Origin: a bacterium BMS3Bbin05
GTDB lineage: Bacteria > Nitrospirota > Thermodesulfovibrionia > Thermodesulfovibrionales > BMS3Bbin05
DNA: 64,000 bases
Assembly (NCBI GenBank): GCA_002897855.1
Contig: BDTO01000021.1
Span: 10,472-74,471 of the forward strand
Direction: 5' to 3'
The notes beneath the pieces are model-generated. The model ran no database searches and had not been told where the DNA came from. It saw only the letters and a program-made list of their open reading frames with translations. A program made the position numbers and the translations under genes. Below, in pieces: positions 12,149 through 49,049 of the stretch; position 1 is the stretch's first letter; each line of letters starts with the position of its first letter.

Positions 12149-13348
<1,200 letters not shown>

Positions 13349-13457
13349 CTCTCCTCCTTTTCCAGAGATCCATATATAAAACTCTGGAATGCAATAACTG
13401 GAAGTTAGTAATATATCAAATTTTAACAATAAAAATCAAAAAATATTTTCAAAAAAG

Positions 13458-15530: not shown

Positions 15531-15548
15531 AATAAACCTCTATAGAAA

Positions 15549-16019
15549 TTACCATCTGTAATGGGCAAAGGCCTTGTTGGCCTCAGCCATTTTGTGGGTG
15601 TCTTCCTTCTTCTTAATGGAGGAGCCTGTACTATTGTAGGCATCTAAAAGCTCGGCAGCAAGTTTCTCTTTAATGGTTTTTTCACCCCGCTGCCTTGTAT
15701 AATTCCTTATCCATCTGAAGGCAAGCGCAATCTTTCTCTGCGGCCTGACCTCCACGGGGACCTGATATGTTGCACCGCCAACCCTTCTGGGCTTGACCTC
15801 TAAAACAGGTTTCACATTATCAATGGCGGTTTTAAAGACCTTAAGAGGATCTTCCCCCGTCTTTTCCCTGATTATATCGAAAGCGCTATAACAGATCTTC
15901 TCTGCCGTAGCCTTCTGTCCACCCTTCATCAGTATATTGATGAACTTGCTTAACAGAACACTTCCATATTTCGGATCAGGCAAAATCTCTCTTTTCTGGG
16001 CAACTCTCCGTCTTGGCAT
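15549..16019 (-). CDS. rpsG: 30S ribosomal protein S7
   Basis: 156 aa, from [18 protein letters not shown] to [10 protein letters not shown]. Confidence 0.98.
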
Positions 16020-24280: not shown

Positions 24281-24793
24281 TTATTTTTCTATTCCTCTTC
24301 TCGCTTCTATGCCATTTCTGTAATAGTGCTTAACCTCTTTCATCTCCGTAACAAGATCTGCGACCTCTATAAGCTTGCCGTTCGCATATCTCCCGGTCAC
24401 GACAACTTCTACATTATCACGCCTTTTCTCCAACATATGGATAAAATCGTCAATATCGATAACCTTATAAAAAAGCGCAACATTAGCTTCATCGAGTACA
24501 ATAAGATCATAATCTCCCGATTCCAGTATCCCTGCCACTTCCTTCATCCCGGTTCTAACGGCTGTGATGTCCGCTTCCGAAGGCCTCTCATCAAAAAAAT
24601 CGCCCGTACCATATTGCCTGACCTGAATTCTATCATTTAATTTCTGCAAGACGCTTATTTCGCTGTAATCTCCCTTCTTAAGAAACTGTGCAAAGAATAT
24701 CCTGAGTCCGGCGCCATAGGCCCTCATGGCAAGCCCGAGCGCAGCGGTCGTCTTGCCTTTTCCCCTACCCGTATAAACCTGTAAATAACCCAT
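24281..24793 (-). CDS. cobO: Cob(I)yrinic acid a,c-diamide adenosyltransferase (CobO/BtuR type)
   Basis: It has the P-loop YTGRGKGKTTAALGLAMRA, followed by FAQFLKG...DLIVLDE. The ORF track starts at GTG 24835. ATG 24793 (MGYLQVYTG) fits family N-termini better. Confidence 0.85.
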   Translation of the reverse strand: MGYLQVYTGRGKGKTTAALGLAMRAYGAGLRIFFAQFLKKGDYSEISVLQKLNDRIQVRQYGTGDFFDERPSEADITAVRTGMKEVAGILESGDYDLIVLDEANVALFYKVIDIDDFIHMLEKRRDNVEVVVTGRYANGKLIEVADLVTEMKEVKHYYRNGIEARRGIEK

Positions 24794-24859
24794 CCGCCCT
24801 TCCGGATATCCCGTTCCGCGAACATAAAATGTCACCGCTCGCCGGCAATGTTATAAACA

Positions 24860-25544: not shown

Positions 25545-26084
25545 ATGCCTAAAAAAGATAAACCATTGCCAACACCGCCGTCTACGCCTTTTGGTCGGAA
25601 GAAACGCCCGGAACATGCTGAAGAGAAATCACCCCTGCTTACTGACCGGTTAGCCACGGCTATGGCTGAGGGCAAGCTGAATGAATTTCTTGAAAAAGAG
25701 ATGCCGGAGAATGAGCATGCAAGAAAGCTTGCTGAAATGATGATGGGTATGACCGGAATGATGCCGATGCAGGGGAACCGGAAAAGGGAGGGGGAACATA
25801 CTCCCATGCCCCCTGAAGATATAGTTGATGCCGTAAAGACCGAAAACGTAGGCGACCTGGTCGGGCTTCTCAAAAGAGAGCATGAGAAACGCCATCCCGA
25901 TAACAAAATTAATATACCGGAAAAACCAAAATCATTTCCAGATGAAGAGTTATCAAACGAAGAAAAAGAAATAATCGACAGGTTAGTTGAAATCTCCACC
26001 GCGAATAAAGTCTCTCTTGACTGGTTAATCCTGAGAGCTCTCAAGTTTTATGTAAAGGAATATGAAAAGACCGGTAAACTGTAA
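25545..26084 (+). CDS. Hypothetical protein with a possible C-terminal ribbon-helix-helix
   Basis: 179 aa with a charged, Met-rich and probably disordered N-terminal part. The C-terminus EIIDRLVEISTANKVSLDWLILRALKFYVKEYEK resembles CopG/RHH folds. The antisense ORF 25517-26044 is Ser-rich and low complexity, so I disfavour it. Confidence 0.45.
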   Translation: MPKKDKPLPTPPSTPFGRKKRPEHAEEKSPLLTDRLATAMAEGKLNEFLEKEMPENEHARKLAEMMMGMTGMMPMQGNRKREGEHTPMPPEDIVDAVKTENVGDLVGLLKREHEKRHPDNKINIPEKPKSFPDEELSNEEKEIIDRLVEISTANKVSLDWLILRALKFYVKEYEKTGKL

Positions 26085-26116: not shown

Positions 26117-27262
26117 TTATGTATGATGCGGGTTAAGAAATTCCTGCACTTCTGCTTTGTTCTCAAGATGGTGCAAGGATATGTTTGGAACATCGGCATT
26201 TCCGGGAAGGGCAAGTACATGGATAAAGGTCAGACCCCTTACAGGCCTTTTAACTGCATCAGTTAACTGCTTTTTACCCGCCACTTTCACTGTATTCTTA
26301 ATTCCGAACCCCCGTGCGACAATTTCAAGGTCAACGCATGAGCCGGTAAATGTCGGTTGACTCCCGGTAGACCCGTATGCACCGTTATCTATGACAATAA
26401 TCGTCAGATTACCGGGAGCTAAGTGCGCCGCTGTCGCAAGTGTACCTGGATTCATGAGCAAACTGCCGTCACCATCTATTACAACCACCTTCCTATCAGA
26501 TGAAAGTGCAACCCCGAGTCCGATTGGAGTGGCCATTCCCATGCTTCCAAGCATGTAGAAACTGGAGGGTTGATGCTTTATGGAAAAAAGTTCCTTTGAA
26601 GGGATTCCTATATTGCAGACAACCAGTTTGCCATCAAGATAAGGTGAAATTATTTCTAATATCTCATAGCGCGTATATTCAGGGGCCAAGATATGACGAC
26701 CGGTATCCGTTCTGATCCGAGAGGCCACCGGATTCCTCTTCTCATCCTCCGGATTCCATTTATTTGCACACTCAACCTCCCACACCCTGGGGCTGAGAAG
26801 GAAGGCATGGATCCTGTTTTTTTCATAGACCATTTCAAGAGGTCTCTTAATCCTGGCAAGGTCTTCCCTTTTGTCGACAACCGTATACCCGACGCCCGAA
26901 GCCTTCAGCAGCCCTTTAACTGCATTACCCATCGGCTTCTGGGCAGCGATCTTTTCCTTATATATACCCCTGTGACTTATAAAAATTGCCAGCGGCAATT
27001 CATAAAATGACGTCAAGGAAAGGAGGGCATTGAGCATATTGCCGATACCGGAATTTTGAATAATCATAGCCGGCCTCTTGCCCGCAAGTGCCGCACCTGC
27101 TGATATACCCACCCCTTCTTCCTCCCGCGTCAGGGGGATATTGACAAATTCAGACGGGATCTTTAAAAGGAGATTCTTGATCCTGTCGCACGGGAGAGAT
27201 AATACATAATCTACTCCAACGCTTTTCATTATGCTTATCAGCTCGTCTTCCGGATTCCGCAT
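26117..27262 (-). CDS. comDE: Fused sulfopyruvate decarboxylase (ComD+ComE-like, TPP-dependent); phosphonopyruvate decarboxylase not excluded
   Basis: 381 aa. The N-terminal half resembles ComD (GVDYVLSLPCDRIKNLL...EEEGVGISAGAALAG). The C-terminal half has the TPP motif (VIDGDGSLLMNPGTLAT...IVIDNGAYGSTG). It overlaps the upstream cysteate-synthase-like gene by 25 nt. No PEP mutase gene is in the window. Confidence 0.7.
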   Translation of the reverse strand: MRNPEDELISIMKSVGVDYVLSLPCDRIKNLLLKIPSEFVNIPLTREEEGVGISAGAALAGKRPAMIIQNSGIGNMLNALLSLTSFYELPLAIFISHRGIYKEKIAAQKPMGNAVKGLLKASGVGYTVVDKREDLARIKRPLEMVYEKNRIHAFLLSPRVWEVECANKWNPEDEKRNPVASRIRTDTGRHILAPEYTRYEILEIISPYLDGKLVVCNIGIPSKELFSIKHQPSSFYMLGSMGMATPIGLGVALSSDRKVVVIDGDGSLLMNPGTLATAAHLAPGNLTIIVIDNGAYGSTGSQPTFTGSCVDLEIVARGFGIKNTVKVAGKKQLTDAVKRPVRGLTFIHVLALPGNADVPNISLHHLENKAEVQEFLNPHHT

Positions 27263-28497
27263 ACAATCTCCTCGATCTCTGAATCGGATATCTCCTTTGA
27301 TATAAAACGGGGCTTTACAATATGAACCCCCTTTTCTTTTCTGAATCTCTCTTCACCACCACCTGTAATATTCAGCAGTACCAATTCATCCCTTTTGACA
27401 TGTTCTTCCTTTATGGCCCGGCTAAGAGCAGCAACAGCGACTCCGGATGCAGGGACGATATCAATACCTTCAGCCTCTGCGAACTCCTCCATCGCCTTAA
27501 ACACCTCATCATTTTCTATGCCGTACATCCGACCATCTGTTGCCCGGAGAGCATCATATACCCCGCCTTTAACCGAATACGCCGGATACCGGTTGGACAA
27601 CACCCGCGTCGTTATCTCAGAAATCAATTCCGGTCTGAGGTCCTGTTTATCGAGTTCCCTGCTCCCCCTCTGCCATGCCTTCGGCATGGGAGCAAAGGGA
27701 AGGTTCTGTGCGAGATGGAGCTGCGGCAGTTTTGCGCCATACCGCCCGTCTCTTAGAAAACGCTCCGACATCTCCCATACGCCGATAGCACCTGTACCGC
27801 TGCCAACGGCCTGGAAATAGTGGTCAGGCAGAGTGCCTATCTCAGAAACCGCCTCAAGCATGACAACTCCCAATCCGTCCCTCTTTGCAATATTTTTTAC
27901 TCCCCCCTCAAACGGCATATTAATAGTTTGTGATATCCTCTTCGCGACATCAATCGAATCAGCATAATCCCCGTCTTCGAGTGCAAATGTAGGCACGACA
28001 AGAGAAGATTCAAGATACCACATCTCAAGGAGACACATCTTGGGAACAACTATAATAACCGGGAAATTTGAAATCACGGACAGGTGCGCAAAGGCCCTTG
28101 CCGTATTACCGGCAGATGCCACTACAAGCCCTTCAACACTGTTTTCCCGGGCATTCTGGAGGACAACGCCGGCTTCAAACTCCTTGAACGTACAACTCTC
28201 GATCGCTGCCCCTTTCTCCGGCCAGTACCCGTTAAAGGCAATATAAAGGTTTTCAAGGCCGAGATCACCGGCAAGTCCCTTCGATCTGTATATGACGGGA
28301 CCGTTCTGGTGAAAGTCGGGCGAATGAACCGGAATCCAGTTAAATCTCCATATACCCTCTCCCCTGTCCTCCCTGAACTCTTCTTCCTTGTAATCCGTAA
28401 CAAGGAGGGCATCCTTACAATGCTCACAAAAGGCACAGTAGACCTCCTGTAAAACCTTGCCGCATTTCCTGCATCTGATATTAAAATGGCTCATCAA
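27238..28497 (-). CDS. Cysteate synthase-like PLP enzyme (threonine-synthase fold)
   Basis: 419 aa with an N-terminal Cys4 zinc ribbon (CRKCG...CAFCEHC), a candidate PLP-lysine context CTFKEFEA, and GSGTGAIG and ITGGG blocks. The call relies on remembered resemblance to the methanogen cysteate synthase family and on coupling to comDE. ATG 28494 is the likely start. Confidence 0.6.
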   Translation of the reverse strand: MMSHFNIRCRKCGKVLQEVYCAFCEHCKDALLVTDYKEEEFREDRGEGIWRFNWIPVHSPDFHQNGPVIYRSKGLAGDLGLENLYIAFNGYWPEKGAAIESCTFKEFEAGVVLQNARENSVEGLVVASAGNTARAFAHLSVISNFPVIIVVPKMCLLEMWYLESSLVVPTFALEDGDYADSIDVAKRISQTINMPFEGGVKNIAKRDGLGVVMLEAVSEIGTLPDHYFQAVGSGTGAIGVWEMSERFLRDGRYGAKLPQLHLAQNLPFAPMPKAWQRGSRELDKQDLRPELISEITTRVLSNRYPAYSVKGGVYDALRATDGRMYGIENDEVFKAMEEFAEAEGIDIVPASGVAVAALSRAIKEEHVKRDELVLLNITGGGEERFRKEKGVHIVKPRFISKEISDSEIEEIVCGIRKTS

Positions 28498-28759: not shown

Positions 28760-29971
28760 TCAATCTCCTGATATTAACTCCGCAATTAACTCCATTATAT
28801 CTACAATCCTGATCTGTTTGTCGTATCCCTCCATTGCCTCATTGACCTTTGAATAGCACGCAGGACAGCTAAGCACCAGTCTGTCCGCTCCTTTCCCGAC
28901 GGCCTCGTCAATAGTCAATCTCCCCATAGCAATAGCATTATCGTGAAAGACCTTACGGGCCGCTCCGCCTGCCCCGCAGCATCGTGAGTCGAGTCCGCTC
29001 CTGTCAAATTCAATGAGTTCCACACCCGGTATGCTTTTCAGAACAGACCTTGGCTCCTCTGTCACACCCACTCCCCTGCTCAGGTAACAGGGGTCATGGT
29101 AAATCAGTTTCTCTTTCAATCCTTCTTTAAAATGAAATTTACCATCTTTTATTGCATCTGCAACAAATTGCGTAATATGCCTTATCTTAAAGGGAAGTTC
29201 CTGTCCATAAAACAACGGCCAGTCCCTTGCCATGATATTTACACAGCACGGGCATGAACTTATGAGCAGCTTAACTCCCTTAATCCTGTATGCATCGACC
29301 AACCTTCTTGTTAAATCCTCAAGCCTGTCATGCTGGCCGGTGATGAATAGCGGGAACCCGCAACACACTTCTTCTTCGGGCGGAAGCATTGTGAATGGTT
29401 CACCAATAGCGCCGAGGGCAAGCACATCTCCCCGCACCATAGCCTGTGACTCATATGCACCTGTACAGCCCGCATAGTATCCTATCTCCGCTCTCCCGGC
29501 AACCTTTACTTCTTGCGGGAACCACGGCCTGTATCTTTCTTCAGCAGGTTTATCATATGGATTCCCTGTCCGTTCTATCACCTTTGGCAGGTTTGCCTGG
29601 GGTCCTAACGGCCCCAGCCCCATATCAACCATTTTCTTTCTTAAAAAAGGCCAGAGGCGCTGGCTGAAGATTCCCACTTCACAACTCTCTCCGCATGCAC
29701 CGCATGTTGTGCATTCAAAGACCGCTTTTGCAAACTCTTCAAGCAACTCCCTGTTTACCTTCCGGGGACCAAAAAGTCGAGCCTTAAGCCCCTCGGTATT
29801 ATTAATAAGGTCCCTGTACATCCTGATCTTTTCCGGTGGAGATATACCGCGATTTCCTGTAACCTCCTGGACGGGACACCACTTCAGACACTCGCTGCAC
29901 CTTGTGCAGGCGTCTAACTCTATAAGATGACGTTTGGTTAATCCTTCAACAAAAGATGTTTTTTCAGTCAT
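28760..29971 (-). CDS. HdrD/DsrK/HmeD-like Fe-S protein (two 4Fe-4S motifs and two CCG domains)
   Basis: 403 aa with CTRCSECLKWCP and CTTCGACGESC ferredoxin motifs. It has two CCG-type Cys clusters (EEVCCGFP...SSCPCC and DSRCCGAGG...LSCPAC). Confidence 0.8.
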   Translation of the reverse strand: MTEKTSFVEGLTKRHLIELDACTRCSECLKWCPVQEVTGNRGISPPEKIRMYRDLINNTEGLKARLFGPRKVNRELLEEFAKAVFECTTCGACGESCEVGIFSQRLWPFLRKKMVDMGLGPLGPQANLPKVIERTGNPYDKPAEERYRPWFPQEVKVAGRAEIGYYAGCTGAYESQAMVRGDVLALGAIGEPFTMLPPEEEVCCGFPLFITGQHDRLEDLTRRLVDAYRIKGVKLLISSCPCCVNIMARDWPLFYGQELPFKIRHITQFVADAIKDGKFHFKEGLKEKLIYHDPCYLSRGVGVTEEPRSVLKSIPGVELIEFDRSGLDSRCCGAGGAARKVFHDNAIAMGRLTIDEAVGKGADRLVLSCPACYSKVNEAMEGYDKQIRIVDIMELIAELISGD

Positions 29972-30773
29972 GGACCAACTCCATTAATTTCGATTTCCTC
30001 ATACCGGCCTCCAGAGTAGTAATCTGGGCAGCAAACATATGAAACTGTTTGGAAAACGGGAGAAAAGCGATGAAAAAAAGTGCCGTTGCGGCATGAAACA
30101 CCCAGAAAATTCTGTACAATGACAGGAGAATGCCATCATCCGGGATCCAGGCCTTAATAACTACCGAAAAGGCTGCACCCACAGGTGACCAGTCCATAGA
30201 AGGCGGATTAAATCTTGCCAGACGAATTCCCTCAATGCAGAATCCACTGACGGCTATAATAAGCATAAGAATAAGGACAGCCGCGTCATCCCATGCCGAG
30301 ACTACCGCGCCTCTGGAGAATATGTATCTTCTGAGGATGAAAAACAGAAGTCCTATGATAAAAAAACCGCCTGAAATGTCCAGTACAAGAGAATAATAGA
30401 GGTAAACTCCGCCTTTCAGGATATCCGCACCCATGTCGTAATCAATTGCAACAATTATTGTGCCGATAAAGAGAACAATAAATCCCCAATATACAAACAA
30501 AAGCATCACTGCCCGGAGTTTACTCCGCTCAACAACCCGTTTGGCAAACAGACAATCCCTTGAAAAGATATAGAGTAAACTTATTCTTGCCAGTCCCAAA
30601 GTAGATTTTTTAGGGACAGGATCATTCGGGTCATCTCCGCCCTTAAACCAGGTTGATATTCTGAGCCATGAACCGGTAAAAAAAACAATAATAGATATTG
30701 CAGCGGCGATATAGAAGATAGTCCTTACCAGTGATGGGATATCATTGAAAACTTCTCTTGACTGGTCTATCAT
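29964..30773 (-). CDS. Integral membrane protein, HdrE/DsrM/NarI-like (putative b-type cytochrome partner)
   Basis: 269 aa with about 6 predicted TM segments and conserved His residues in helices. It overlaps the HdrD-like gene by 8 nt. The assignment rests mainly on pairing and topology. Confidence 0.6.
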   Translation of the reverse strand: MIDQSREVFNDIPSLVRTIFYIAAAISIIVFFTGSWLRISTWFKGGDDPNDPVPKKSTLGLARISLLYIFSRDCLFAKRVVERSKLRAVMLLFVYWGFIVLFIGTIIVAIDYDMGADILKGGVYLYYSLVLDISGGFFIIGLLFFILRRYIFSRGAVVSAWDDAAVLILMLIIAVSGFCIEGIRLARFNPPSMDWSPVGAAFSVVIKAWIPDDGILLSLYRIFWVFHAATALFFIAFLPFSKQFHMFAAQITTLEAGMRKSKLMELVHD

Positions 30774-30796
30774 TTTAATCCCTTTAATTATTTGCT

Positions 30797-31744
30797 TCAG
30801 CCCATCATAAGGGGACTTTTCAACAATTCATTTCTTTGAGCAGACCTTAGTGTGTTTTCAAGCAGCATCGATATTGTTACAGGACCGACTCCGCCCGGCA
30901 CGGGTGTTATCAGGGAAGCCTTTTTCTTGACGGATTCGTAATCTACATCTCCGACGATGGTTCCGTCATCCAGCACCTTTATACCTATATCAACGACAAC
31001 AGCGCCTTCCCTGACCATATCACCTCTGATTAAATTTCGCACACCGGTTGCGGAACAGACAATATCCGCATGTCCCAGGAAATGTCCAAGGTCATATGTC
31101 CCGCGATGGCAGACTGTCACCGTCGCCTCTTTTGCAAGCAACATATTTGAAAGAGGTTTTCCTACAGCAAGGCTCTTGCCCACCACAACTGCATGCATGC
31201 CTTTCATCTCTACACCGTAAAATTCCAGGAGCCTGATCACACCAAAAGGGGTACATGGGAGAAAACTTGATATCGAGGGCCTAAATCTGCTTTCATGAAG
31301 CAGTTCATAAGACCCCTCCCTGAATATCTGGAAAGTGGATTCATCAGCGGCAAGACGTCCTACAGAAATAGCACCAAGGCCGTCAACATCCTTCCCGGGT
31401 ATTATCTCATTAACCACCCGTCGCGCATTGATTCTCTCTGGCAGCGGAAAAAGGACAAGCAGGCCGTTTATCCTCTCATCGGTGTTACAGGAATGAATAA
31501 CATTAAGGACCTCATTAACAGAGGTGTTCCCGGACAATTTGAACTCGTAAGACGTAATGCCGACCTTTTTGCATGCCTTGAGTGTAGCAAGGAAATACTG
31601 TTCTGATGCTGGATTATCCCCAACCAGCAACAGTCCGAGCCCAACCTCAATTCCAAAACCTCTGAGTTGCTCTACTTCTTTTCTGACATTATTCTTTATT
31701 TTATCTGAAAGTACCCTTCCATCCATAATCTGCGTCATGGACAT
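30797..31744 (-). CDS. folD: Bifunctional methylene-THF dehydrogenase / methenyl-THF cyclohydrolase
   Basis: 315 aa with GKDVDG, VVVGKSLAVGKPL and TPVPGGVGPVT motifs. It carries a 23-residue insertion between DVDG and CTP relative to E. coli FolD as I remember it. Confidence 0.93.
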   Translation of the reverse strand: MSMTQIMDGRVLSDKIKNNVRKEVEQLRGFGIEVGLGLLLVGDNPASEQYFLATLKACKKVGITSYEFKLSGNTSVNEVLNVIHSCNTDERINGLLVLFPLPERINARRVVNEIIPGKDVDGLGAISVGRLAADESTFQIFREGSYELLHESRFRPSISSFLPCTPFGVIRLLEFYGVEMKGMHAVVVGKSLAVGKPLSNMLLAKEATVTVCHRGTYDLGHFLGHADIVCSATGVRNLIRGDMVREGAVVVDIGIKVLDDGTIVGDVDYESVKKKASLITPVPGGVGPVTISMLLENTLRSAQRNELLKSPLMMG

Positions 31745-31755
31745 TACCTCCGTGT

Positions 31756-32076
31756 TCAGTCATCTTCCTTGATAAATTCCATATGCACATCCTTTGGCAC
31801 TGCAAGTCCCGCCTCTACCTCAAGCACCTTAAGCACACCGGATGGTACGGGGCACGATACGTGCTTCAGACACACCGAAGCCCTGACATAGACCGGGTTA
31901 TCCGTTATTCTCTTGAATGCATCCATGAATTCCAGCTCCGGCATCTCGGCGCCGAGTTTCTGTACCATCTCACATTCTGAAGAAACCGTCACTGCAAACT
32001 TTTTACCGGCCTTCTTTTCTACTTTGACAACCGTGGAAAAACCGCATATGCCTGAATTTATCTTCACTTCAGTCAT
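31756..32076 (-). CDS. Small four-Cys protein of unknown function
   Basis: 106 aa with Cys at positions 11, 35, 69 and 75. It is tightly packed between the RACo-like gene and folD. I do not recognise a family. Confidence 0.5.
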   Translation of the reverse strand: MTEVKINSGICGFSTVVKVEKKAGKKFAVTVSSECEMVQKLGAEMPELEFMDAFKRITDNPVYVRASVCLKHVSCPVPSGVLKVLEVEAGLAVPKDVHMEFIKEDD

Positions 32077-32134
32077 CTTTCAGCCCGGATAATTCATAAA
32101 CCATCACTGCTTCTCCATGCCCCGGTGATTTTAT

Positions 32135-34111
32135 TTAACCCTTCACCTTAACCGGCACATTATTCTTCTCAAGCAATGCCTTGAGGTTCGGAAACCTGTC
32201 TTTCATATGGGGTATATGCATTGCCATCATGAACTCCTTCTCAAATTCCGGCTCTACCGCTATCTCCACAAAGTTGACCCACCTCGCCTTTTCCCTGGCC
32301 TCTATCCTCTTGCCCCTGTTAAGAAGCGCCATCCTGGCACCATCCCCGGCGGCATTCCCGACGGCATAGACCTTCTCGATATTACAGTCGGGGAACATGC
32401 CAAGCGTCATGGCCGCTTCCGTATCAATGTGGCTACCAAATGCACCGGCCAAAACCACCCTGTCAAGTTTTTCGATGCCAAGTTTTTTCATCATCAATTT
32501 CGCCCCGGCATAAAGCGCACCCTTTGCAAGTTGAAGTGCACGCACATCCCCCTGGGTAACAGTAATATCTGTGCCGATCGATGTCTCATCAGACCACGCC
32601 AGAACATATTCCGGTTTGCCTTCGGCATCACGCCTCACCCTGGGAGTATCGAGGTCCATTACAAATTTTCCCGACTTGTCGATAATCCCGGCCTTGAACA
32701 TCTCTGTAATCACATCAATAATGCCGGAACCGCATAGTCCCTTTGCATCAATCTTTTCAATGTGGGTATGCCAGTCGGCCTTGCCTATAACCATGTATTC
32801 GGGGTCCTTCGTCCCGGGGTCGATCCTGACCTTTTCGATCGCACCCGGTGCCGCGCGCATACCGAATTTGATCTGTGCGCCTTCAAAAGCCGGCCCGGTA
32901 GCACAAGACGTTGAATATACGGCATCTTTGTTACCGAGCAGCAGTTCACCATTGGTACCGATATCAATAATAAGAACCATGTCATCGGCATTGTAAGGTT
33001 CTTCGGCAATCAGGACACCAACGTTATCAGCACCCACAAAACCCGCCTCTATCGGCAGCACATGTATATAGGAAGCCGGGTTTATATCTATACCCATATC
33101 CCTGGCCTTGATATCGATCGGCTCCTGCAATGCCGGTATAAAAGGCGACCTCCCTATATACTCCGGATTAAACCCGAGGAAAATGTGGTGCATGGCCGTA
33201 TTGAAGACCACGGTCATATCAATTATAGTATGGCCTCCTTTCGTACCATTCAGCCTGATCTCGGATGTAACTTTGGCGATAAGCTCATTCAACCCCTCTA
33301 TCAGCGTCTTCCGCATTGTCTCAAGGCCGCTGTCGTTAGTCATGGCATAGGTTATCCTCGACATGACATCTTCTCCATACGGCACCTGGGGATTCATCAT
33401 GGACTCAGTATTCAGGACCTTCCCCGTGTTCATATCGCACAGGTAAGCCGCAACCGTTGTAGTGCCCACATCTATGGCTATGCCATAGGAAGACTCAACA
33501 AACCCCGGCTCTACCTTTATTATCTCTCTGTCCATCCATACCGACACAGTTACCTTCCACTCTCCCTTTCTCAAAATGTTCTGGATGTCCCTGAGAATCA
33601 CATAATCAATATCAATATCATCGAGACCGTACTGCTCCCGCAGGGCATTTCCTATCCTCTCAAAATCACCCCGTGACAGATCATGCAGTCCCGGTGCCTG
33701 CAGTTCAATATAATATCTCTTCACTGCGGGGTCAAGGGCTATGATTATGTCCCTTGCCGCCTTCCTGACTATCTGCTTTCCGGCCCTTGATTTCTCCGGC
33801 ACAAAGACCTTTACGTCACCCTGCACTGTTGCAGAACAGGCAAGCCTCATCTGCGGACCATCCCCGGCTTTTATAAATTTCCTCTCGACGTCCGACATCG
33901 GTGTCAGGTGTGACATGCCCGATTCCATAGCATCTTTCTCAAAATAACCCTCCTCAATCCTCACCTTGCATTTCCCGCACGTTCCCTTTCCGCCGCAGAT
34001 CGATTCCAGGTCTACACCAAGCATCTGCGCTGCTTCAAGCAGCGTCTTGTCTTCCTCTATTTCTCCTCTTCTCCCGGAGGGTTGAAAGATCACCTTGTAT
34101 TTACCGCTCAT
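32135..34111 (-). CDS. Corrinoid reductive activase (RACo/RACE type: 2Fe-2S ferredoxin plus ASKHA ATPase domain)
   Basis: 658 aa. It has an N-terminal plant-type ferredoxin (CGGKGTCGKCKV...RLAC) and a large ASKHA-like domain (GIAIDVGTTTVAAYL...IIDIGTNGELLLG). Confidence 0.8.
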   Translation of the reverse strand: MSGKYKVIFQPSGRRGEIEEDKTLLEAAQMLGVDLESICGGKGTCGKCKVRIEEGYFEKDAMESGMSHLTPMSDVERKFIKAGDGPQMRLACSATVQGDVKVFVPEKSRAGKQIVRKAARDIIIALDPAVKRYYIELQAPGLHDLSRGDFERIGNALREQYGLDDIDIDYVILRDIQNILRKGEWKVTVSVWMDREIIKVEPGFVESSYGIAIDVGTTTVAAYLCDMNTGKVLNTESMMNPQVPYGEDVMSRITYAMTNDSGLETMRKTLIEGLNELIAKVTSEIRLNGTKGGHTIIDMTVVFNTAMHHIFLGFNPEYIGRSPFIPALQEPIDIKARDMGIDINPASYIHVLPIEAGFVGADNVGVLIAEEPYNADDMVLIIDIGTNGELLLGNKDAVYSTSCATGPAFEGAQIKFGMRAAPGAIEKVRIDPGTKDPEYMVIGKADWHTHIEKIDAKGLCGSGIIDVITEMFKAGIIDKSGKFVMDLDTPRVRRDAEGKPEYVLAWSDETSIGTDITVTQGDVRALQLAKGALYAGAKLMMKKLGIEKLDRVVLAGAFGSHIDTEAAMTLGMFPDCNIEKVYAVGNAAGDGARMALLNRGKRIEAREKARWVNFVEIAVEPEFEKEFMMAMHIPHMKDRFPNLKALLEKNNVPVKVKG

Positions 34112-34773
34112 TGAGTTTCCTCCATCACTTCAGATTTAATTTCAATATAACCCCTGCCATAAGGACAAATATTGATACACAGCCCGCAATTGGGTTTCCC
34201 GTTAACAGGCCTTGATTTCTCCTTATGGCTCCTGCACTTATCAGCCTTTATCATATCCGGATAAGGTGCGTTCCTCGACCACGTCTCGCCTGTAATAGCC
34301 TTTGAAGGGCAATGGTCAACACAAAGCATGCAATCTCCGCATAGACAGTTCTCGATGGGCAAATCAGTTTTAAAACGGGCATCCGTTAAAACAGTAGCGA
34401 GCGACAGCCGTGGCCCGTAAGTCGGACTGATAAGAAGGCCGTTTCTGCCTATCCAGCCGATACCCGCACATGTCGCAGCTATTTTATGCGTAAAAAGCGG
34501 ATACAACTTTGAAGCAAACGAATCGTTTATCCTGTCCGAATCAGGAGGGATACAGAAAAACCTGTATCCTTTTCCCCTCAGGAATAACGCTGTCTTTTTC
34601 TGCAATTTCTTCAGATGATCCAGATTGCTTTCCCGGAGATTCCCGTTCACGCCTATGGAAATTGCGAAAGACAGGTGTCTTATGTCTTCAGACAGCCCAT
34701 CCGCTACTGAAGCAAATCCGATGACGGTGGCGCCGGCCTTTCTCAACATTTCACGGATACCTTCACGCATCAA
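34108..34773 (-). CDS. Minimal QueG/reductive-dehalogenase-superfamily-like Fe-S protein
   Basis: 221 aa with AGIGWIGRNGLLISPTYGPRLSLATVLTD, a block typical of QueG, then two 4Fe-4S motifs (CGDCMLCVDHCP and CGLCINICP). It is far shorter than canonical QueG (about 380 aa by recollection). It overlaps both neighbouring genes by 4 nt. Confidence 0.6.
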   Translation of the reverse strand: MMREGIREMLRKAGATVIGFASVADGLSEDIRHLSFAISIGVNGNLRESNLDHLKKLQKKTALFLRGKGYRFFCIPPDSDRINDSFASKLYPLFTHKIAATCAGIGWIGRNGLLISPTYGPRLSLATVLTDARFKTDLPIENCLCGDCMLCVDHCPSKAITGETWSRNAPYPDMIKADKCRSHKEKSRPVNGKPNCGLCINICPYGRGYIEIKSEVMEETQ

Positions 34774-35459
34774 TTATTCTTCGCCTCTGCCTCCTCCTTG
34801 AGTTCTTTAAGCGCCCCTATCATCTTGATAGCATCAGAAAGGGCATTGGTTGCATCGGCAGCATACCCGTCTGCCCCCCACTTGTCCGCTATGTCCTTTG
34901 AGACCGGAGCGCCGCCTATCATTATCTTGACATTCGGGTTCTTCGCCTTTAGATTGTCAATAACCTTCTGCATCCCGATCATGGTCGTTGTCATCATCGC
35001 CGACAGACAGACGAGATCGGACTCGGTCTTTATCTGTTCTTCAACAAATTTGTCGAGAGGAACATCACGGCCGAGGTCATAGACATCAAATCCCGCCACA
35101 TCAAACATCATCTTTACGATGTTCTTGCCGATATCATGAACATCTCCTTCAACTGTACCGATCACAACCGACCCCTTGACCCCCAGATCCATCTTCTTTA
35201 CGTGCGGATTGAGGATATCAAGCCCCGCATACAGGGCGTCCGCACACATTAACAGTTCCGGGACAAAATACTCCTGTGACTCGAAAAGCTTTCCTACCTC
35301 CTGCATACCGGCCACAAGCCCGTCAAAGATAGCATCATTTGCATTGAGACCTTCATCCAGCGCCTCCTGGGCGCCTTCCCTGGCAGCATCCTCATCATAC
35401 TCAATCACTGCCTTTGTAAGCTTTTCCATAATCTCCTTTTTTCTTTCTTCTGTTGCCAT
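34770..35459 (-). CDS. Methyltransferase-cognate corrinoid protein (B12-binding)
   Basis: 229 aa with an N-terminal helical cap, the DxHxxG motif (EGDVHDIGKN), the SxL motif (SAMMTTTM) and the GG motif (IGGAPV). Confidence 0.9.
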   Translation of the reverse strand: MATEERKKEIMEKLTKAVIEYDEDAAREGAQEALDEGLNANDAIFDGLVAGMQEVGKLFESQEYFVPELLMCADALYAGLDILNPHVKKMDLGVKGSVVIGTVEGDVHDIGKNIVKMMFDVAGFDVYDLGRDVPLDKFVEEQIKTESDLVCLSAMMTTTMIGMQKVIDNLKAKNPNVKIMIGGAPVSKDIADKWGADGYAADATNALSDAIKMIGALKELKEEAEAKNN

Positions 35460-35462
35460 AAA

Positions 35463-36497
35463 TTACCTCCTGTATTCCTTTACTTCGTCAATCATTGCCC
35501 TGAAATTTTCGGGCGGGACGGTCGGCCAGATATCGCATCCGGGCCAGACAGCGCTCACACCGTCATCAAGGCATTTCCTTACAGTTTCCCTTACCAGCTC
35601 AGTAGTGCCCGAAACAAGCACATTATACGGATCATAATTCCCGAATATCAATGCCTTGTCACCAAGTTTCTTCCTCGTTTCAGCAACATCGTTCTTCTGA
35701 TCGACACTTATCGCATTCGTACCGGACTCAATCATAAAAGCCGCAATATCATTCGTCTTCCCGCAGATATGGACAACACTCGGAACTGTTATCTTTTCAA
35801 ATATTTTCTTCAGGTGAGGAAGTATGAGGTTCTTGAAACCCCTCGGGCTGAGTACATCCGATGTCGCCCCCATCTCCCTTATCGTCAGATAATCAACACC
35901 CGCTTTCTCGTATTCAGCGGCAATTGCAATAATTACTCCTGCAAGAGTATCCAGAAGCTTACCGACCTTGTCAGGCTTCTTGAAAGAAAGCTTCAGAAGA
36001 TCGTTCAACTCCATTATCTGGCCTGCAAGAGTAAAGGGGCCGAGTAAATATGACCCCACCGGCACTTCGTCACCGATCTCTTTCTTCGCAAGCCCTATAG
36101 CCTCCATCATCATGGGGATCCTTCCCCTTTCAAGCAAATCATCAGGTACGGCGATCTCCATCCCAGCCTCATTATGGATCACTTTTTCCTTGATCGTAGG
36201 GTACAGCAGGTCCCCGGAATAAGCATAAGTATTTATCCGGCATCCAAGCGCCTCCGCCTCCACACAGAGGTCGAACGGCAAGACGCAGCTGTCAAACCCG
36301 AACAGTTTCGGAGTAGTAACCGCCGTCTCCGCCATCTGCCTTGCATCAAGATGTACCTGCGCGAACTTGTAGCCGAGCTGATTGAGTCCTTCGGTCGTTG
36401 CATTACCCATTCCGCTGAAACAGGCCGGCCTGTCCGTTTCTTCTCCTCTGAAAAGTTTAAGAACTCTTTCTCTTGAGCTCATTGTCGATACAGCCAT
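35463..36497 (-). CDS. URO-D family methylcobamide methyltransferase (MtaA/MtbA/MtvA-like), copy 1
   Basis: 344 aa with the uroporphyrinogen-decarboxylase-like fold typical of MT2 enzymes (VHICGKT...WPGCDI). AAGGAG precedes the ATG. Confidence 0.8.
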   Translation of the reverse strand: MAVSTMSSRERVLKLFRGEETDRPACFSGMGNATTEGLNQLGYKFAQVHLDARQMAETAVTTPKLFGFDSCVLPFDLCVEAEALGCRINTYAYSGDLLYPTIKEKVIHNEAGMEIAVPDDLLERGRIPMMMEAIGLAKKEIGDEVPVGSYLLGPFTLAGQIMELNDLLKLSFKKPDKVGKLLDTLAGVIIAIAAEYEKAGVDYLTIREMGATSDVLSPRGFKNLILPHLKKIFEKITVPSVVHICGKTNDIAAFMIESGTNAISVDQKNDVAETRKKLGDKALIFGNYDPYNVLVSGTTELVRETVRKCLDDGVSAVWPGCDIWPTVPPENFRAMIDEVKEYRR

Positions 36498-36523
36498 CCC
36501 TTAATCTCCTTTCATGAATATTA

Positions 36524-37489
36524 TTATTTTGCAACCTTTTTCTTTCTCGCTCCGCCCTCGATAACCTTTTCAATAAAGTCAGGAAAATACTTTCTTATGG
36601 GAAGAAAATCTTTGTCCGCTATTTCATGTGTTTCGTCATATACGAGCGTCGAGAGGAGTATATGCGCAGTTGCAACGGCCGGAAAAATCCTCGGTGCAGT
36701 TACAATGGGGCCATAAAAATTAAAATCGCTCCACAGCACGGAAGACATGCCCTGTGCCACTGCGTCCATCGCCCTGAAGCCGTCAAGGCCCCACAGGACC
36801 TTCGACTCCTTCCACATATGAGTTCCATTGGAATATGCGCCACCGCACGGCAGGCCGAGTTTTTCCTTTATCAGCCTGTTGGCCAGCAGCGAAAAAGAAG
36901 TAGACGGAAGGTTCATCACCGATGTGTCTACAATGACGGTATCAAAACTGCCGGCCCCCTGAGAGAGCATTGCCTCGAGAGACTTCAATCTGCCGGCAGG
37001 TGTCTGATCCCGGTCATCAAAGGCCTGAACTACCACGTGCCTTATACCCAGGTCCTTAAGTCTTTCCACCTGCCCCTTTATATCTCTGTCCCAGGGAGTT
37101 ATGCTGTTATACAGGAACTTGTCCTGCACCCCCAGTTTCGCCACATATTCCGTAGCCTTCGCCCTCTTTTCGGCAACCCACATATCGATTCCGAAAGGCA
37201 TATCGGTCGTTTCAAGATAAAAATCTATGTAGACCCGAGCCTCCTCCGGGGTATTGGCAACCATTGCAACCATAGCCGGGATACCTGTTGAACGGCTTAA
37301 TTCTTCCTGTTTCCTGATCAGCTCCACTGCCCTGTTCCGGTCAAATTTCGCCGTCTTCCTGTCTTTTAGAATTTTATCCTTGTTATGAAACATGGATGCA
37401 ATCATCATGGGCACATTTTCACCCGGTTGTCCGCCGATTTCTATTCCGGCAATGTCAAAAATTTTCTGCTCCGTTTTAAATCTGAACAT
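36524..37489 (-). CDS. MtrH-like methyl-pterin:corrinoid methyltransferase
   Basis: FRFKTEQKIFDIAGIEIGGQPGENVPMMIASMFH resembles the MtrH family. The ORF track starts at TTG 37504. ATG 37489 follows AAGGAG. Confidence 0.75.
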   Translation of the reverse strand: MFRFKTEQKIFDIAGIEIGGQPGENVPMMIASMFHNKDKILKDRKTAKFDRNRAVELIRKQEELSRSTGIPAMVAMVANTPEEARVYIDFYLETTDMPFGIDMWVAEKRAKATEYVAKLGVQDKFLYNSITPWDRDIKGQVERLKDLGIRHVVVQAFDDRDQTPAGRLKSLEAMLSQGAGSFDTVIVDTSVMNLPSTSFSLLANRLIKEKLGLPCGGAYSNGTHMWKESKVLWGLDGFRAMDAVAQGMSSVLWSDFNFYGPIVTAPRIFPAVATAHILLSTLVYDETHEIADKDFLPIRKYFPDFIEKVIEGGARKKKVAK

Positions 37490-37679
37490 TCGTTCTCCTT
37501 TCAATGTTGAAATATAATTGCATGAAGATACTTAAATAAACATTGCAAATATAATTTCTGAAATAAAAATAAAGGAGTATTGGAGCAACCAGGGGATGAA
37601 GCAGCAAAATTTCACCGCTCCAATACTCCGGGAACCGGCTATTCAAAGGCCTTATGTATCGAGCAAGTTACCACAATTA

Positions 37680-38120
37680 TCAATATACACCGTGGTCGAA
37701 GCTCGGCTGAGGAAGATATTCCCATTCCTCCCCTTTTCTGAATTTGGCCTCGATGTCGAGACACTTCAGGGCATATTCAAACGCATAGGGTATTCCCGGC
37801 CCGCCCGGGACAAAGCCTGCGAGTATCATACCTACCGACGCAGCCTCAAATATCTCACCGGTTGTTGCACCGGCATTAATGGCAGGGATTACATGGATAA
37901 TGCACCTTGGAGAACAGTATGCAACCCCGCCGGACATGAACATCAGTTCCTTGATCTTCTTGGAGAGTGCCCCGTCACCAAAAATTGATGCATAAAAATC
38001 TGCAAAGGTTCTTCCGGGATCAGGTGTAACTGTGTTAATAATCTTGAACATCCTGGGAGTAAAGCCCATTTTTTCCTTCATGTACTCATTACACTGTTCG
38101 GCTGTCATTTTCTCTGACAT
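37680..38120 (-). CDS. Carboxymuconolactone decarboxylase / AhpD-like family protein
   Basis: The AhpD-core-like segment is LMFMSGGVAYCSPRCIIHVIPA (Cys-x3-Cys-x2-His). The ORF track starts at 38189. ATG 38120 (MSEKMTAEQ) follows a strong AGGAAGGAGG site. Confidence 0.75.
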   Translation of the reverse strand: MSEKMTAEQCNEYMKEKMGFTPRMFKIINTVTPDPGRTFADFYASIFGDGALSKKIKELMFMSGGVAYCSPRCIIHVIPAINAGATTGEIFEAASVGMILAGFVPGGPGIPYAFEYALKCLDIEAKFRKGEEWEYLPQPSFDHGVY

Positions 38121-38304
38121 AAGCTCCTCCTTCCTGCTATTTTCCGGCCCCATGGCCAGAATTTTCTTAATACTGCCAAATATCCCCATAAATACCTTCC
38201 CCTGTGGAAACTAACATCTTAAGCCATCTCACCTCCTCCCGTTTACAGACACACATGGTCTTGATCCGGGACTCTTTTGTATTCATCTGTTTCATGAACC
38301 CGGG

Positions 38305-39333
38305 TTAGAGCTTCCATTCATTTGCTACCTGAATAAACTTTTGTATGTTTTCATATGGGACAGTCGGCGGGATATCACATCCCGGCATAAGTACAAAGGC
38401 GCCGTCCGTCCCTGCAGCCTCTATAACTTTCCTGCATGCACTCTCCACATCACCAACACCGCCCTGGAGCATGACCGCAACCGGATCTACATTCCCTGCA
38501 AAACACATCTTTCCATATAAAAGCTCTCTTGCCTTCACTATGTCCGTTTTGTGGTCAAGACTGATACAGCTTGCACCGGTATCTGGAAAGAGCCCCAGCC
38601 TGTCTGTAGTATTGCCGCATATATGCAGAAGGGTGTGAACGTTCTTTGCCCGGGCCCAGCCGGTAAATTTCCTGAGTGGCGGTACTGCAAATCTCTCAAA
38701 CTGCTTCTTTGATATGAGGTCACCCGATGCCGTTGGGTCCGCAAGGGAGATCACCTGGAGTGTCCCGTCATCCACGAGGGGTTCATAGAGATGGATGAGA
38801 AGGTCACATGCAAAATCCACAACCTTCTCCACAAGGGCGGGTTTCTTGAAAGTTGCTTTCATCATCACTTCTTCACCGACAAAACGCGCCCCGAGAGTAA
38901 AAGGCCCCCATGCAGTCATGCTCACCACATATTTACCGCCTATCTTCTCTTTCGTCTTTCTTAATGCCTCTTTAACGGTATTGATTGTCTCATCTTTATC
39001 TATATCTTCTATTCTGAGTTTCGCAAGGTCTTCCTCTGAATCCACCAGTGGAGCTTCAAGATCGGGCGCCCCGATCTCACGGAATTTTATCTTTCCTCCC
39101 AATGCAGATGCATGGAAATTATTGTACCCCGACCCGGCATAAACTATATCGCATTGAAGTTTCTCACTGTTTTCGACAAGCATCTGCGTCATCTTGTCCG
39201 CATCTCCCGACAGCTCTTTGAATGTGGTACCGGAGTTATGGATGCTCCACATACCACCGCCAAACAGTGTTACCGGCACCCTTTCAGGCTTTCCCCCTTC
39301 AAAGGCTGTTAACATGACTTCTTTTGGTGTCAT
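38305..39333 (-). CDS. URO-D family methylcobamide methyltransferase (MtaA/CmuA-like), copy 2
   Basis: 342 aa, a paralog of 35463-36497 (LLHICGNTT...MPGCDIPP). AAAGGAGGAATGT precedes the ATG. Confidence 0.8.
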   Translation of the reverse strand: MTPKEVMLTAFEGGKPERVPVTLFGGGMWSIHNSGTTFKELSGDADKMTQMLVENSEKLQCDIVYAGSGYNNFHASALGGKIKFREIGAPDLEAPLVDSEEDLAKLRIEDIDKDETINTVKEALRKTKEKIGGKYVVSMTAWGPFTLGARFVGEEVMMKATFKKPALVEKVVDFACDLLIHLYEPLVDDGTLQVISLADPTASGDLISKKQFERFAVPPLRKFTGWARAKNVHTLLHICGNTTDRLGLFPDTGASCISLDHKTDIVKARELLYGKMCFAGNVDPVAVMLQGGVGDVESACRKVIEAAGTDGAFVLMPGCDIPPTVPYENIQKFIQVANEWKL

Positions 39334-40061: not shown

Positions 40062-40646
40062 TTACCGCTCTAAAAGCATTTTGATTTTTTTCTTAACAAT
40101 CTTCGGGAACATTTCCGAATGGTCTCTCAATTTATTCATGTCAATGTTTCCAAGTTCCAACTCTCCGGGAAAAGGGGCATGTTTTCTTAAATAAACCGTA
40201 TCCAATAACGCCTTTTCGGGCGAGGCGATATTGAACCCCTCCCCTGTCTCAAATCCGTAAAAGAGTTTCTCCAAGACCCTGGAATATTCAATGGCCGTTC
40301 CTCTGAAGTTAACCTTATTCCTTTTACCGACGGCAGAACTCAGTGTGATCACTGTGCAAACAGACGGGACCTGCAGAATGATGTTGTGATAGTTCAGCGC
40401 CCACTCGCAGGAAATGTAGGAGGGGGTTCTCAAGTAACAGGCAACTTCCTCGACGGAAGGCATTTTCTTGAATGTATTGAGATATACGCCACGCATAATG
40501 CGGGTCACATAACCCGACTTCAATGCCCGGGTAAGAAAGACATTAGGGTTCGATGTCAGTTTTGACACATCAGCGTAACGAAAGAGGGACGGGAGAAAGC
40601 GGAGAATATCCACCGTTTTCTTCTTTCTCGCTCTCTGTTTCTTCAT
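40062..40646 (-). CDS. AbiEi-like antitoxin/transcriptional regulator family protein
   Basis: 194 aa. ...GYVTRIMRGVYLNTF...YISCEWALNYHNI...ASPEKALLDTVYL matches the AbiEi pattern as I recall it. Its ATG overlaps the AbiEii stop by 1 nt (TAATG). Confidence 0.65.
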   Translation of the reverse strand: MKKQRARKKKTVDILRFLPSLFRYADVSKLTSNPNVFLTRALKSGYVTRIMRGVYLNTFKKMPSVEEVACYLRTPSYISCEWALNYHNIILQVPSVCTVITLSSAVGKRNKVNFRGTAIEYSRVLEKLFYGFETGEGFNIASPEKALLDTVYLRKHAPFPGELELGNIDMNKLRDHSEMFPKIVKKKIKMLLER

Positions 40647-48137: not shown

Positions 48138-49049
48138 TCACCTGTAATGGTCCGGGCCGGGATGCACCTCACGAATGATGGAAAGATCGAATATTTTTTC
48201 CTTCGGGATTTCACTTTCAATGTATCCCAGTTCTCTGAGCCTTTTTGTAAGCCGCATTGTGCAGGATATATAGCCTTCAGTCAATGAAGCGCAGTACCGT
48301 GGTGAAGTATTGAGGGTGTCAAGGACGAATTCCTCATCAACCACACCCATCAATTCCGCGATATCCGCCGCAACGGATTCCCGGCTGTTTCTGAGCATTT
48401 CCGAAGCCCTCTCGTGACGTACAATGAAATCCTTTATAACGGCCCTTTCACTTGACAGCAGATCCTCACGGACAAGAATGCCATAACTCGGGTTGTCAGG
48501 CCAAAGCAGGTTGGACGGATATACGATCTTTCCTCCTGCATAATTGATCACCGCCTGTGCGAGTGAAGGGGTGCCTGCAACCGCATCAACTTCGCCGTGA
48601 ACAAATGCCTCCAGTAACCGGTCAGCCCACGCAAAGTTACGCACCTCAACGGGTACATTGTTGGCATGAACCGCATCCATCAGGATAAGGTCATGAATTG
48701 AACCCTTCCCCGGCACGCCGATAATTTTATGACATGAGAGTATCTCTCCAAACTTATCCGTTTCAGGATAAGCCGGGGAACCGGCGCCTGCGGCAATTAC
48801 TGTGCCTTCGACATGGCCTCCTGCAATACACCTGATTTTTGTGCCCTTATCAATCCCTATAACAGCAGGCGGCAGACCTATGTAAGCCATATCAATTTCC
48901 TTCTTCCTGAATGCCTCCACAATAGCGGGGCCCGTCCCGAAAAGGCTCCATTCAACTTCTGCCCCGAATCCGTCAAGCAATTCCTCGCGCGCCATCATGA
49001 GAATCGATGTATGGTAAAGTGTTGAAAGATGCCCGACTCTTAATCGCAT
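48138..49049 (-). CDS. SsuA/NMT1/THI5-like periplasmic-binding-fold protein without an obvious signal peptide
   Basis: 303 aa. LRVGHLSTLYHTSILMMA...FGTGPAIVEAFRKKEIDMAYIGLPP follows the type-II SBP pattern. The N-terminus has no hydrophobic leader. Confidence 0.6.
   Translation of the reverse strand: MRLRVGHLSTLYHTSILMMAREELLDGFGAEVEWSLFGTGPAIVEAFRKKEIDMAYIGLPPAVIGIDKGTKIRCIAGGHVEGTVIAAGAGSPAYPETDKFGEILSCHKIIGVPGKGSIHDLILMDAVHANNVPVEVRNFAWADRLLEAFVHGEVDAVAGTPSLAQAVINYAGGKIVYPSNLLWPDNPSYGILVREDLLSSERAVIKDFIVRHERASEMLRNSRESVAADIAELMGVVDEEFVLDTLNTSPRYCASLTEGYISCTMRLTKRLRELGYIESEIPKEKIFDLSIIREVHPGPDHYR

Follow-up and report, generated by a model that had tools for sequence, protein, structure and literature searches.

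An overlapping gene pair for a predicted cysteate synthase and sulfopyruvate decarboxylase closes a conserved HdrD-like gene array in Nitrospirota

Why should a bacterium carry two genes that are diagnostic of the archaeal, phosphoserine-dependent route to coenzyme M (CoM), a cofactor known from methanogens, alkane-oxidising archaea and, by another route, a few aerobic alkene-oxidising bacteria? The question is raised by a 64,000-nt stretch of DNA (hereafter the window, in which all positions given below are counted) from a Nitrospirota bacterium for which there are metagenome assemblies only. On its minus strand, the reading frame of a predicted cysteate synthase runs into that of a predicted fused sulfopyruvate decarboxylase (ComDE). 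An earlier note on this DNA had proposed both identities, an overlap of 25 nt and a bacterial host, all of which are borne out below. It had also set its finding apart from the wider cluster hypothesis, and here we part company with it: the two genes form the 3' end of an array, all on one strand, that is conserved in Nitrospirota/Thermodesulfovibrionia. There, in about 75 species genomes, they make up the translationally coupled tail of a conserved operon.

The upstream open reading frame (ORF) is readily assigned. Searched with hidden Markov models, it scores 463 bits against the curated cysteate synthase model TIGR03844 (an NCBIfam equivalog, EC 2.5.1.76), passing the cut-off of 324.9 by 138 bits, whereas the best threonine synthase (ThrC) model reaches 84 bits against a cut-off of 303, and ThrC models generally stay at or below 84 bits, where their cut-offs begin at 167. 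Among solved structures, the closest is likewise a cysteate synthase (PDB 9k3c; 314 bits, E = 1e-92, residues 5-399), with threonine synthases in the same comparison at 52 bits or less (2zsj: 52). The lysine predicted to hold pyridoxal phosphate (PLP), K104, lies in CTFKEFEA and is aligned with CSFKETEA of 9k3c. Among 90 full-length representatives of the family, the underlying (S/T)-F-K-(E/D)-x-E-A motif retains its lysine in 86, E107 in 84 and A108 in 81. The corresponding lysine of threonine synthases, whose motif is SFKDRG, has a different context, sFKD in the alignment with 2zsj. Note that only one of the two hallmarks previously put forward for this protein survives comparison with its relatives. 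The TFKEFEA lysine context holds; the N-terminal four-cysteine ribbon (a cluster made up of C8, C11, C21, C24 and C27) is present in most family representatives but missing from 9k3c-type and several other members and, because the solved 9k3c-type enzyme does without it, is not diagnostic of cysteate synthases. The assignment already exists as automatic annotation, since a 100% identical protein is on record at NCBI as 'cysteate synthase [Nitrospirota bacterium]'.

For the downstream ORF, the curated models for both ComD and ComE (sulfopyruvate decarboxylase, EC 4.1.1.79) pass, the ComD-like half (residues 6-161) with 188.2 bits against a cut-off of 147.95 for TIGR03845, and the two together sum to 410 bits. 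The phosphonopyruvate decarboxylase (Ppd) model TIGR03297 aligns over its full length and fails, with 210.4 bits against 312.5. Pfam recognises both thiamine pyrophosphate (TPP) enzyme domains (TPP_enzyme_N, 32 bits; TPP_enzyme_C, 72 bits), and the TPP motif GDG...N is present as GDGSLLMN...VIDNG. In a Methanomassiliicoccus genome, where ComD and ComE are split and have cysteate synthase and a COG1900/HcyBio gene in the same cluster, the two proteins are 39% and 49% identical to the fused protein. We give little weight to the best PDB matches, alpha and beta subunits deposited as 'putative phosphonopyruvate decarboxylase', which score only 80 and 55 bits.

How tightly are the two genes joined? 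The upstream ORF opens at an in-frame TTG (27238..28497), public gene calls starting at the next codon, the ATG at 28494. At its other end, the ComDE start codon and a GAGGAG Shine-Dalgarno-like site both lie inside the last 36 nt of the cysteate synthase gene, with GAGGAG embedded in the codons for a conserved ..IEE.. of the synthase. To place this arrangement among its relatives, we drew on a scan of one genome per GTDB species, which found relatives of the cysteate synthase in 445 stretches; counts of related loci refer to the best 80 of these, with 66-75% identity, and L-numbers denote the loci fetched. The two genes are adjacent in 74 of the 80, and 75 of the 77 loci compared, which come from different species genomes, have an overlap of 25 or 28 nt, most of the overlapping relatives having a GAGGA-like motif at the same place. 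Both peptide ends encoded by the overlap are conserved, ..EIEELLCxxLKK.. in the synthase and MxxPEEELIxILK.. in ComDE. Two loci (L066 and L077) depart from the pattern, with the genes about 590 nt apart and no overlap. With both ORFs matching curated models (E = 7e-139 and about 1e-60) and an overlap that recurs, the pair is beyond chance, and ComDE would be translated by coupling to the cysteate synthase.

We hold the two enzyme identities, as read from the curated family models, with high confidence and infer the activities from equivalog-level homology. Cysteate synthase would combine O-phospho-L-serine with sulfite to give L-cysteate and phosphate (step 1), an aminotransferase encoded elsewhere would transaminate the cysteate (step 2), and ComDE would split 3-sulfopyruvate into sulfoacetaldehyde and CO2 (step 3). 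It is probable that the pair represents the first and third steps of the phosphoserine-dependent ('class II methanogen') route to CoM, at the end of an HdrD-like array.

That the DNA is bacterial is evident from the genes for rpoB/rpoC, tuf, fusA, nusG, ribosomal proteins, sigma-54 activators, GGDEF and PilZ proteins in the window, and from the occurrence of the 418-aa cysteate synthase, verbatim, on 11 public contigs, with identical protein from Nitrospirota metagenome-assembled genomes (MAGs). The 80 best loci are labelled Nitrospirota, Thermodesulfovibrionales, Ca. Sulfobium or similar, with the exception of one MAG labelled Betaproteobacteria. In a library clustered at 50% identity, the cysteate synthase family comprises 197 clusters at E <= 1e-30, and its named members include Phycisphaerae, Acetothermia, Gammaproteobacteria and Methanomassiliicoccus; from this spread over clusters and lineages it follows that cysteate synthases are widespread in uncultured anaerobes.

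We then asked what the pair is joined to. Directly upstream of the cysteate synthase, in 74 of the 80 loci, lies an HdrD-like gene, whose stop overlaps the synthase start by 4 nt in 18 loci, and ahead of this gene a diverged membrane-protein family is found in 61 loci, with a typical overlap of 11 nt. Because these genes overlap in series, the core is a four-gene translationally coupled module of membrane subunit, HdrD-like protein, cysteate synthase and ComDE; one locus (L039) has this module alone. In the window itself, the HdrD-like gene and the cysteate synthase gene are separated by a spacer of 265 nt, in which neither a sigma-70-like promoter nor an intrinsic terminator was reported. A riboswitch or regulatory RNA ahead of the cysteate synthase was considered and rejected, Rfam giving only a tRNA across the window. 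In about 50 of the 80 loci, most exceptions being loci cut by contig ends, the module is preceded by methyltransferase genes in a fixed order: MtaA/CmuA-like, CMD/AhpD-like, MtrH-like, second MtaA-like, corrinoid protein, small ferredoxin, RACo, DUF6951 and sometimes FolD. The second MtaA-like protein (35463..36497) passes the 'methylcobalamin:CoM methyltransferase' model NF004889 with 270 bits against 244, as well as TIGR01463 with 251.5 against 235.4, and its best PDB match is Methanosarcina mazei MtaA (4ay7, 165 bits).

This operon context (HdrD-like, MtaA-like, MtrH-like, corrinoid protein and RACo) suggests a CoM-like product, and the best named match of the HdrD-like protein, the CoM/CoB-thiol-oxidising subunit TfrB, points the same way although it falls far short of its cut-off. 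Sulfoacetaldehyde would be turned into CoM or a similar sulfonated thiol, either non-enzymatically with sulfide or through another enzyme, and the thiol would serve the co-encoded HdrDE-like disulfide reductase and MtaA-like zinc methyltransferase. By analogy, the array resembles the methylotrophic toolkit of Methanosarcinales minus methyl-CoM reductase (MCR). We regard a CoM-type end use as possible, with the chances tilted somewhat against it.

A number of observations weigh against CoM as the end point, and some against the pathway assignment that precedes it. The ComE-like half of ComDE (residues 198-368) clears TIGR03846 only marginally, at 222.1 bits against 221.5, or 0.6 bits over. A few relatives (L065, L085 and, in a distant lineage, L086) have the pair without the HdrD-like gene. 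Every named model from the HdrDE, TfrB and DsrMK systems stays below its cut-off for the adjacent HdrD-like protein: the best NCBIfam match, TfrB (CoM/coenzyme B thiol:fumarate reductase subunit B), scores 173 bits against 385, followed by DsrK with 73 against 400 and HdrB with 20 against 345, the cysteines of the CCG domains being conserved. Neither MCR nor any other known CoM-dependent enzyme was found in the window, nor were coenzyme B biosynthesis genes seen there. The methyltransferases, too, are weak evidence for CoM, because equivalent sets of MtaA/CmuA, MtrH, corrinoid protein and RACo work without it in bacteria, for example in the mec cassette; we therefore rejected the upstream MtaA-like gene as proof of CoM use.

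Two steps of the route are also missing from the neighbourhood, and belong on the same side of the balance. An aspartate-type aminotransferase is absent from the conserved cluster, and the sole aminotransferase of the window (55883-56992) is CobD/HisC-like, lies 29 kb off and has threonine-phosphate decarboxylase as its best match, at 205 bits and below cut-off. In methanogens, cysteate is converted to sulfopyruvate by a housekeeping aspartate aminotransferase (PMC9457059). As for the last step, no ComF/MMP16 gene (COG1900/PF01837) was found in the window, over all of its 64 kb, or in the bacterial loci examined, to a distance of 10 kb from the pair. Here, a tblastn search of the window and 94 loci with the Methanomassiliicoccus COG1900/HcyBio protein returned only the query itself and, beyond that, noise at E <= 10; nor did PF01837 appear in the Pfam scans of the window. 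However, the lack of a clustered ComF is not decisive, because in M. acetivorans sulfide compensates for the loss of MMP16 and abiotic formation of CoM from sulfide and sulfoacetaldehyde has been reported (PMC11844431).

There are a number of scenarios other than CoM synthesis that might explain why the pair is kept. The main rival accepts both enzymes and sends sulfoacetaldehyde, a known branch point of sulfonate biochemistry, to a non-thiol sulfonate such as isethionate, taurine or sulfoacetate, for example as a compatible solute, with the HdrD-like and methyltransferase neighbours functionally unrelated. The lack of a ComF/COG1900 gene near the pair and the recurrence of a cytoplasmic SsuA-like protein with it speak in favour of such a product, as does the proposal of cysteate-derived taurine synthesis in subsurface anaerobes (PMC12019592). 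However, neither a sulfoacetaldehyde reductase nor a taurine aminotransferase nor a sulfoacetaldehyde dehydrogenase is conserved beside the pair, and the 4-nt overlap between the HdrD-like and cysteate synthase genes noted above favours a function shared with a thiol/disulfide-type enzyme, so that we consider a non-thiol product improbable. It is far less probable that specificity has drifted, such that the first ORF encodes another beta-replacement or gamma-elimination enzyme (for instance a phosphoserine sulfhydrylase making cysteine or S-sulfocysteine) and the second acts on a different 2-oxo acid. Divergence leaves room for drift, the Nitrospirota clade sharing only about 40-49% identity with the closest clusters outside it and with enzymes of the solved type, and so do the marginal ComE score and the history of the family, which Graham and colleagues are said to have traced, in 2009, to threonine synthase by neofunctionalisation. 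Set against this are the wide margin over the equivalog cut-off, the family motifs that are kept, and the methanogen-like tight coupling of both genes, which fits a cysteate-to-sulfopyruvate logic.

The two remaining scenarios fare worse. If the names of the PDB chains matched by ComDE and the full-length alignment of the Ppd model were taken at face value, the pair might be read as threonine synthase plus phosphonopyruvate decarboxylase and assigned to phosphonate biosynthesis. This reading is effectively refuted, and ruled out, by the curated cut-offs, which Ppd misses by 102 bits while ComD and ComE pass and which no ThrC model approaches, and by the lack of the phosphoenolpyruvate (PEP) mutase that would go with it. 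The earlier note had seen no PEP mutase nearby, and rightly so: no such domain occurs in the window ORFs of at least 150 aa scanned against Pfam, and the 80 related loci share no further conserved gene family within 10 kb of the pair that would qualify as one. Least credible of all is that cysteate is itself the product and feeds the synthesis of sulfonolipids of the capnine type. It is cysteate that gives rise to sulfonolipid head groups, and not sulfoacetaldehyde as the earlier note had it when listing the fates of the latter. Bacterial cysteate synthases are reported to serve sulfonolipid synthesis, and in one locus (L094) a family member is followed by a PF00155 aminotransferase/AONS-like gene. 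However, the conserved cluster holds no acyltransferase or AONS-like gene, and we reject the capnine route at this locus because of the translational coupling of the synthase to ComDE, an enzyme that takes away the very carboxyl group on which the capnine condensation depends. The L094 arrangement (3318-5965) is of interest in its own right: a distant member, P0129 (469 aa), overlaps by 4 nt the PF00155 gene that replaces ComDE, which could be a sulfonolipid-type or a dedicated-transaminase context.

Returning to synthesis of CoM or a close relative, one can sketch how the neighbouring genes might fit in. A soluble system of MtrH, corrinoid protein and MtaA-like protein would move methyl groups between tetrahydrofolate (THF) and the thiol, an HdrDE-like complex in the membrane would link the thiol and its disulfide to the quinone pool, and either this complex or the SsuA-like, AhpD-like or DUF6951 proteins might replace ComF in the reductive thiolation of sulfoacetaldehyde. 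In its fullest form, the proposal has Thermodesulfovibrionia-type Nitrospirota producing CoM, or a sulfonated thiol close to it, along the archaeal phosphoserine route and putting it to use in the absence of MCR, with the methyl-transfer, quinone-coupling and ComF-replacement roles just described. Taken with all its parts we rate this as unlikely; if true, CoM would have a bacterial role independent of MCR, conserved throughout a widespread class of the subsurface.

Table 1. Positions of the gene pair, its overlap, the upstream array and further genes in the 64,000-nt window, with the matches on which each assignment is based.
Feature	Positions	Strand	Remarks
Predicted cysteate synthase (PLP-dependent, ThrC-derived)	27238..28494	-	418 aa; TIGR03844, 9k3c, NCBI identity
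Predicted fused sulfopyruvate decarboxylase ComDE (TPP-dependent)	26117..27262	-	381 aa, ATG start; TIGR03845 + TIGR03846
25-nt overlap of both frames	27238..27262	-	synthase TGA 27240-27238, ComDE ATG 27262-27260
GAGGAG Shine-Dalgarno-like site for ComDE	27268..27273	-	5 bases ahead of ComDE ATG
HdrD-like iron-sulfur protein	28760..29971	-	2x[4Fe-4S] (Fer4_8) + two CCG domains (Pfam)
Membrane subunit (NarI/HdrE/QmoC-like)	29964..30773	-	Pfam Nitrate_red_gam 27 bits, QmoC 32 bits; overlaps HdrD-like gene by 8 nt
FolD (methylene-THF dehydrogenase/cyclohydrolase)	30797..31744	-	at this position in only ~10/80 relatives
DUF6951 small protein	31756..32076	-	Pfam PF22263 111 bits; in 61/80 loci
RACo/AcsV-type reductive activator of corrinoid proteins	32135..34111	-	Pfam RACo domains; AcsV 490 bits, below cut-off
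Small 4Fe-4S protein (RDH/QueG-like ferredoxin domain)	34108..34773	-	profile matches
Corrinoid (B12-binding) methyl-carrier protein	34770..35459	-	Pfam B12-binding, B12-binding_2; TIGR02370 214.8 vs 215.3
MtaA/CmuA-family methyltransferase (URO-D fold), second in array	35463..36497	-	HxC...C zinc motif; NF004889, TIGR01463
MtrH-family methyl-pterin:corrinoid methyltransferase	36524..37504	-	NF002142 335 vs 287; Pfam MtrH
CMD/AhpD-like protein	37680..38189	-	conserved CSPRCxxH motif
MtaA/CmuA-like URO-D-family methyltransferase, first gene of conserved array	38305..39333	-	profile matches, synteny
Cytoplasmic SsuA-like protein (sulfonate-binding-protein fold), no signal peptide	48138..49049	-	Pfam NMT1_2; SsuA_fam 81 bits full-length, below cut-off
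Convergent 179-aa protein, no Pfam/NCBIfam match	25545..26084	+	downstream of ComDE in ~28 relatives

Which proteins could supply the downstream steps? Three families recur with the pair and are candidates. In 13 Nitrospirota loci (e.g. L006, 7739-8677 on the minus strand), a member of the SsuA-like family, with 50% identity to the window copy, follows ComDE at a distance of 2-3 kb. In the distant L086, whose cysteate synthase is only 49% identical to that of the window, an SsuA-like gene (12360-13265 on the plus strand, 43% identity to the window copy) is translationally coupled to ComDE. This protein may bind or process a sulfonate. DUF6951, whose conserved residues are Cys11, Cys35, Cys69, His72 and Cys75, also occurs near the cysteate synthase and ComDE genes in L086 and in L093, and L086 in addition has a CMD/AhpD-like homologue (51% identity) near them, the DUF6951 and CMD genes lying at 14219-14957 of that locus. 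From their sequences and their recurrence, DUF6951 and the CMD/AhpD-like protein show hints of a shared thiol or metal function.

The surroundings of the array hold further genes. The 13-gene same-strand array that ends in cysteate synthase and ComDE (28760-39333, minus strand) has MTHFR nearby at 43154-44026, and cobalamin-related genes flank the corrinoid cluster, namely a CobO/BtuR ATP:corrinoid adenosyltransferase (24281-24835, minus strand) and the CobD/HisC-like aminotransferase already mentioned (55883-56992, minus strand). Between the ribosomal/rpoBC block and the cluster lies a 1415-aa protein (16692-20939, plus strand) with two BcrAD/BadFG ATPase domains and DUF2229, a 'CoA enzyme activase' architecture. 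The C-terminus of the convergent 179-aa protein (..IIDRLVEISTANKVSLDWLILRALKFYV..) resembles a ribbon-helix-helix DNA-binding motif, as judged by eye only. Just upstream of the methyltransferase cluster is an AbiEi/AbiEii type IV toxin-antitoxin pair (40062-41767, minus strand); further on come an HTH-Peptidase_M78 (ImmA/IrrE-like) protein (58047-59153) and a Fic/DOC protein (59803-61008).

The pair itself is already auto-annotated and enzymatically ordinary. What appears undescribed is that its joining to an operon of HdrDE-like and methyltransferase genes is conserved in a class of bacteria; full-text searches of the literature turned up nothing on cysteate synthase or ComDE for Nitrospirota. 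Whatever the product, a class of anaerobic bacteria that is abundant has, in about 75 of its species-level genomes, a conserved coupled pair of genes diagnostic of the archaeal phosphoserine route. Should the product be CoM, the known biology of the cofactor would be extended, there would be candidates for a ComF-independent last step, and comDE, cysteate synthase and mtaA would need to be used with caution as methanogen markers in metagenomes. If it is another sulfonate, the pair points to an unrecognised sulfite sink in Thermodesulfovibrionia-type bacteria.

How does the locus compare with known systems? The closest likeness is to Methanosarcina acetivorans, where cysteate synthase, ComDE and MMP16 are adjacent (MA3297-MA3299) and cysteate synthase and ComDE are essential for CoM synthesis (PMC11844431). 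There, too, cysteate synthase lies directly beside a fused ComDE and both proteins belong to the same curated families, but the host here is a bacterium and no MMP16/ComF gene (COG1900) is adjacent to the pair or present in the window. Comparable clusters occur in Methanomassiliicoccus (L092) and Methanoculleus (PMC4045070). In the former (10001-15668) and in L090 (6640-11297), the neighbours of cysteate synthase and ComD/E include an ABC ATPase, a CobW-like GTPase and a PF04060 'FeS' protein. Unlike these clusters, the Nitrospirota loci are without the ABC, CobW and FeS companions; upstream they have the membrane subunit and the HdrD-like protein, and the two genes overlap by 25-28 nt. With the solved cysteate synthases 9k3c and 9k3o, the window protein has the motifs FKExEA, SAGNTARAF and QAVGSGTGAI in common, but it is only about 40-45% identical to them (an estimate made via P0222, a 9k3c-like representative), and the solved enzyme has no N-terminal CxxC...CxxC cluster.

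The remaining parts of the array have their own counterparts. The combination of a membrane subunit with a cytoplasmic protein containing 2x[4Fe-4S] and two CCG domains is shared with HdrDE of Methanosarcina, TfrB of Methanothermobacter and DsrMK of sulfate reducers. The upstream half, with MtaA/CmuA, MtrH, corrinoid protein and RACo, is like bacterial corrinoid cassettes such as those of O-demethylases, MtgABC and mec for dichloromethane, and we know of no report in which a cassette of this kind occurs together with cysteate synthase, ComDE or an HdrDE-like pair. Finally, bacterial CoM synthesis is known in Xanthobacter (XcbB1-E1), where it is PEP-based (PMC9457059), and a PEP-dependent pathway has been predicted in MAGs of the Desulfobacterota 'Anaeropigmentia' (bioRxiv 2021.03.22.436540). 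In contrast to these two, which start from PEP and phosphosulfolactate, the genes described here point to the phosphoserine/cysteate route.

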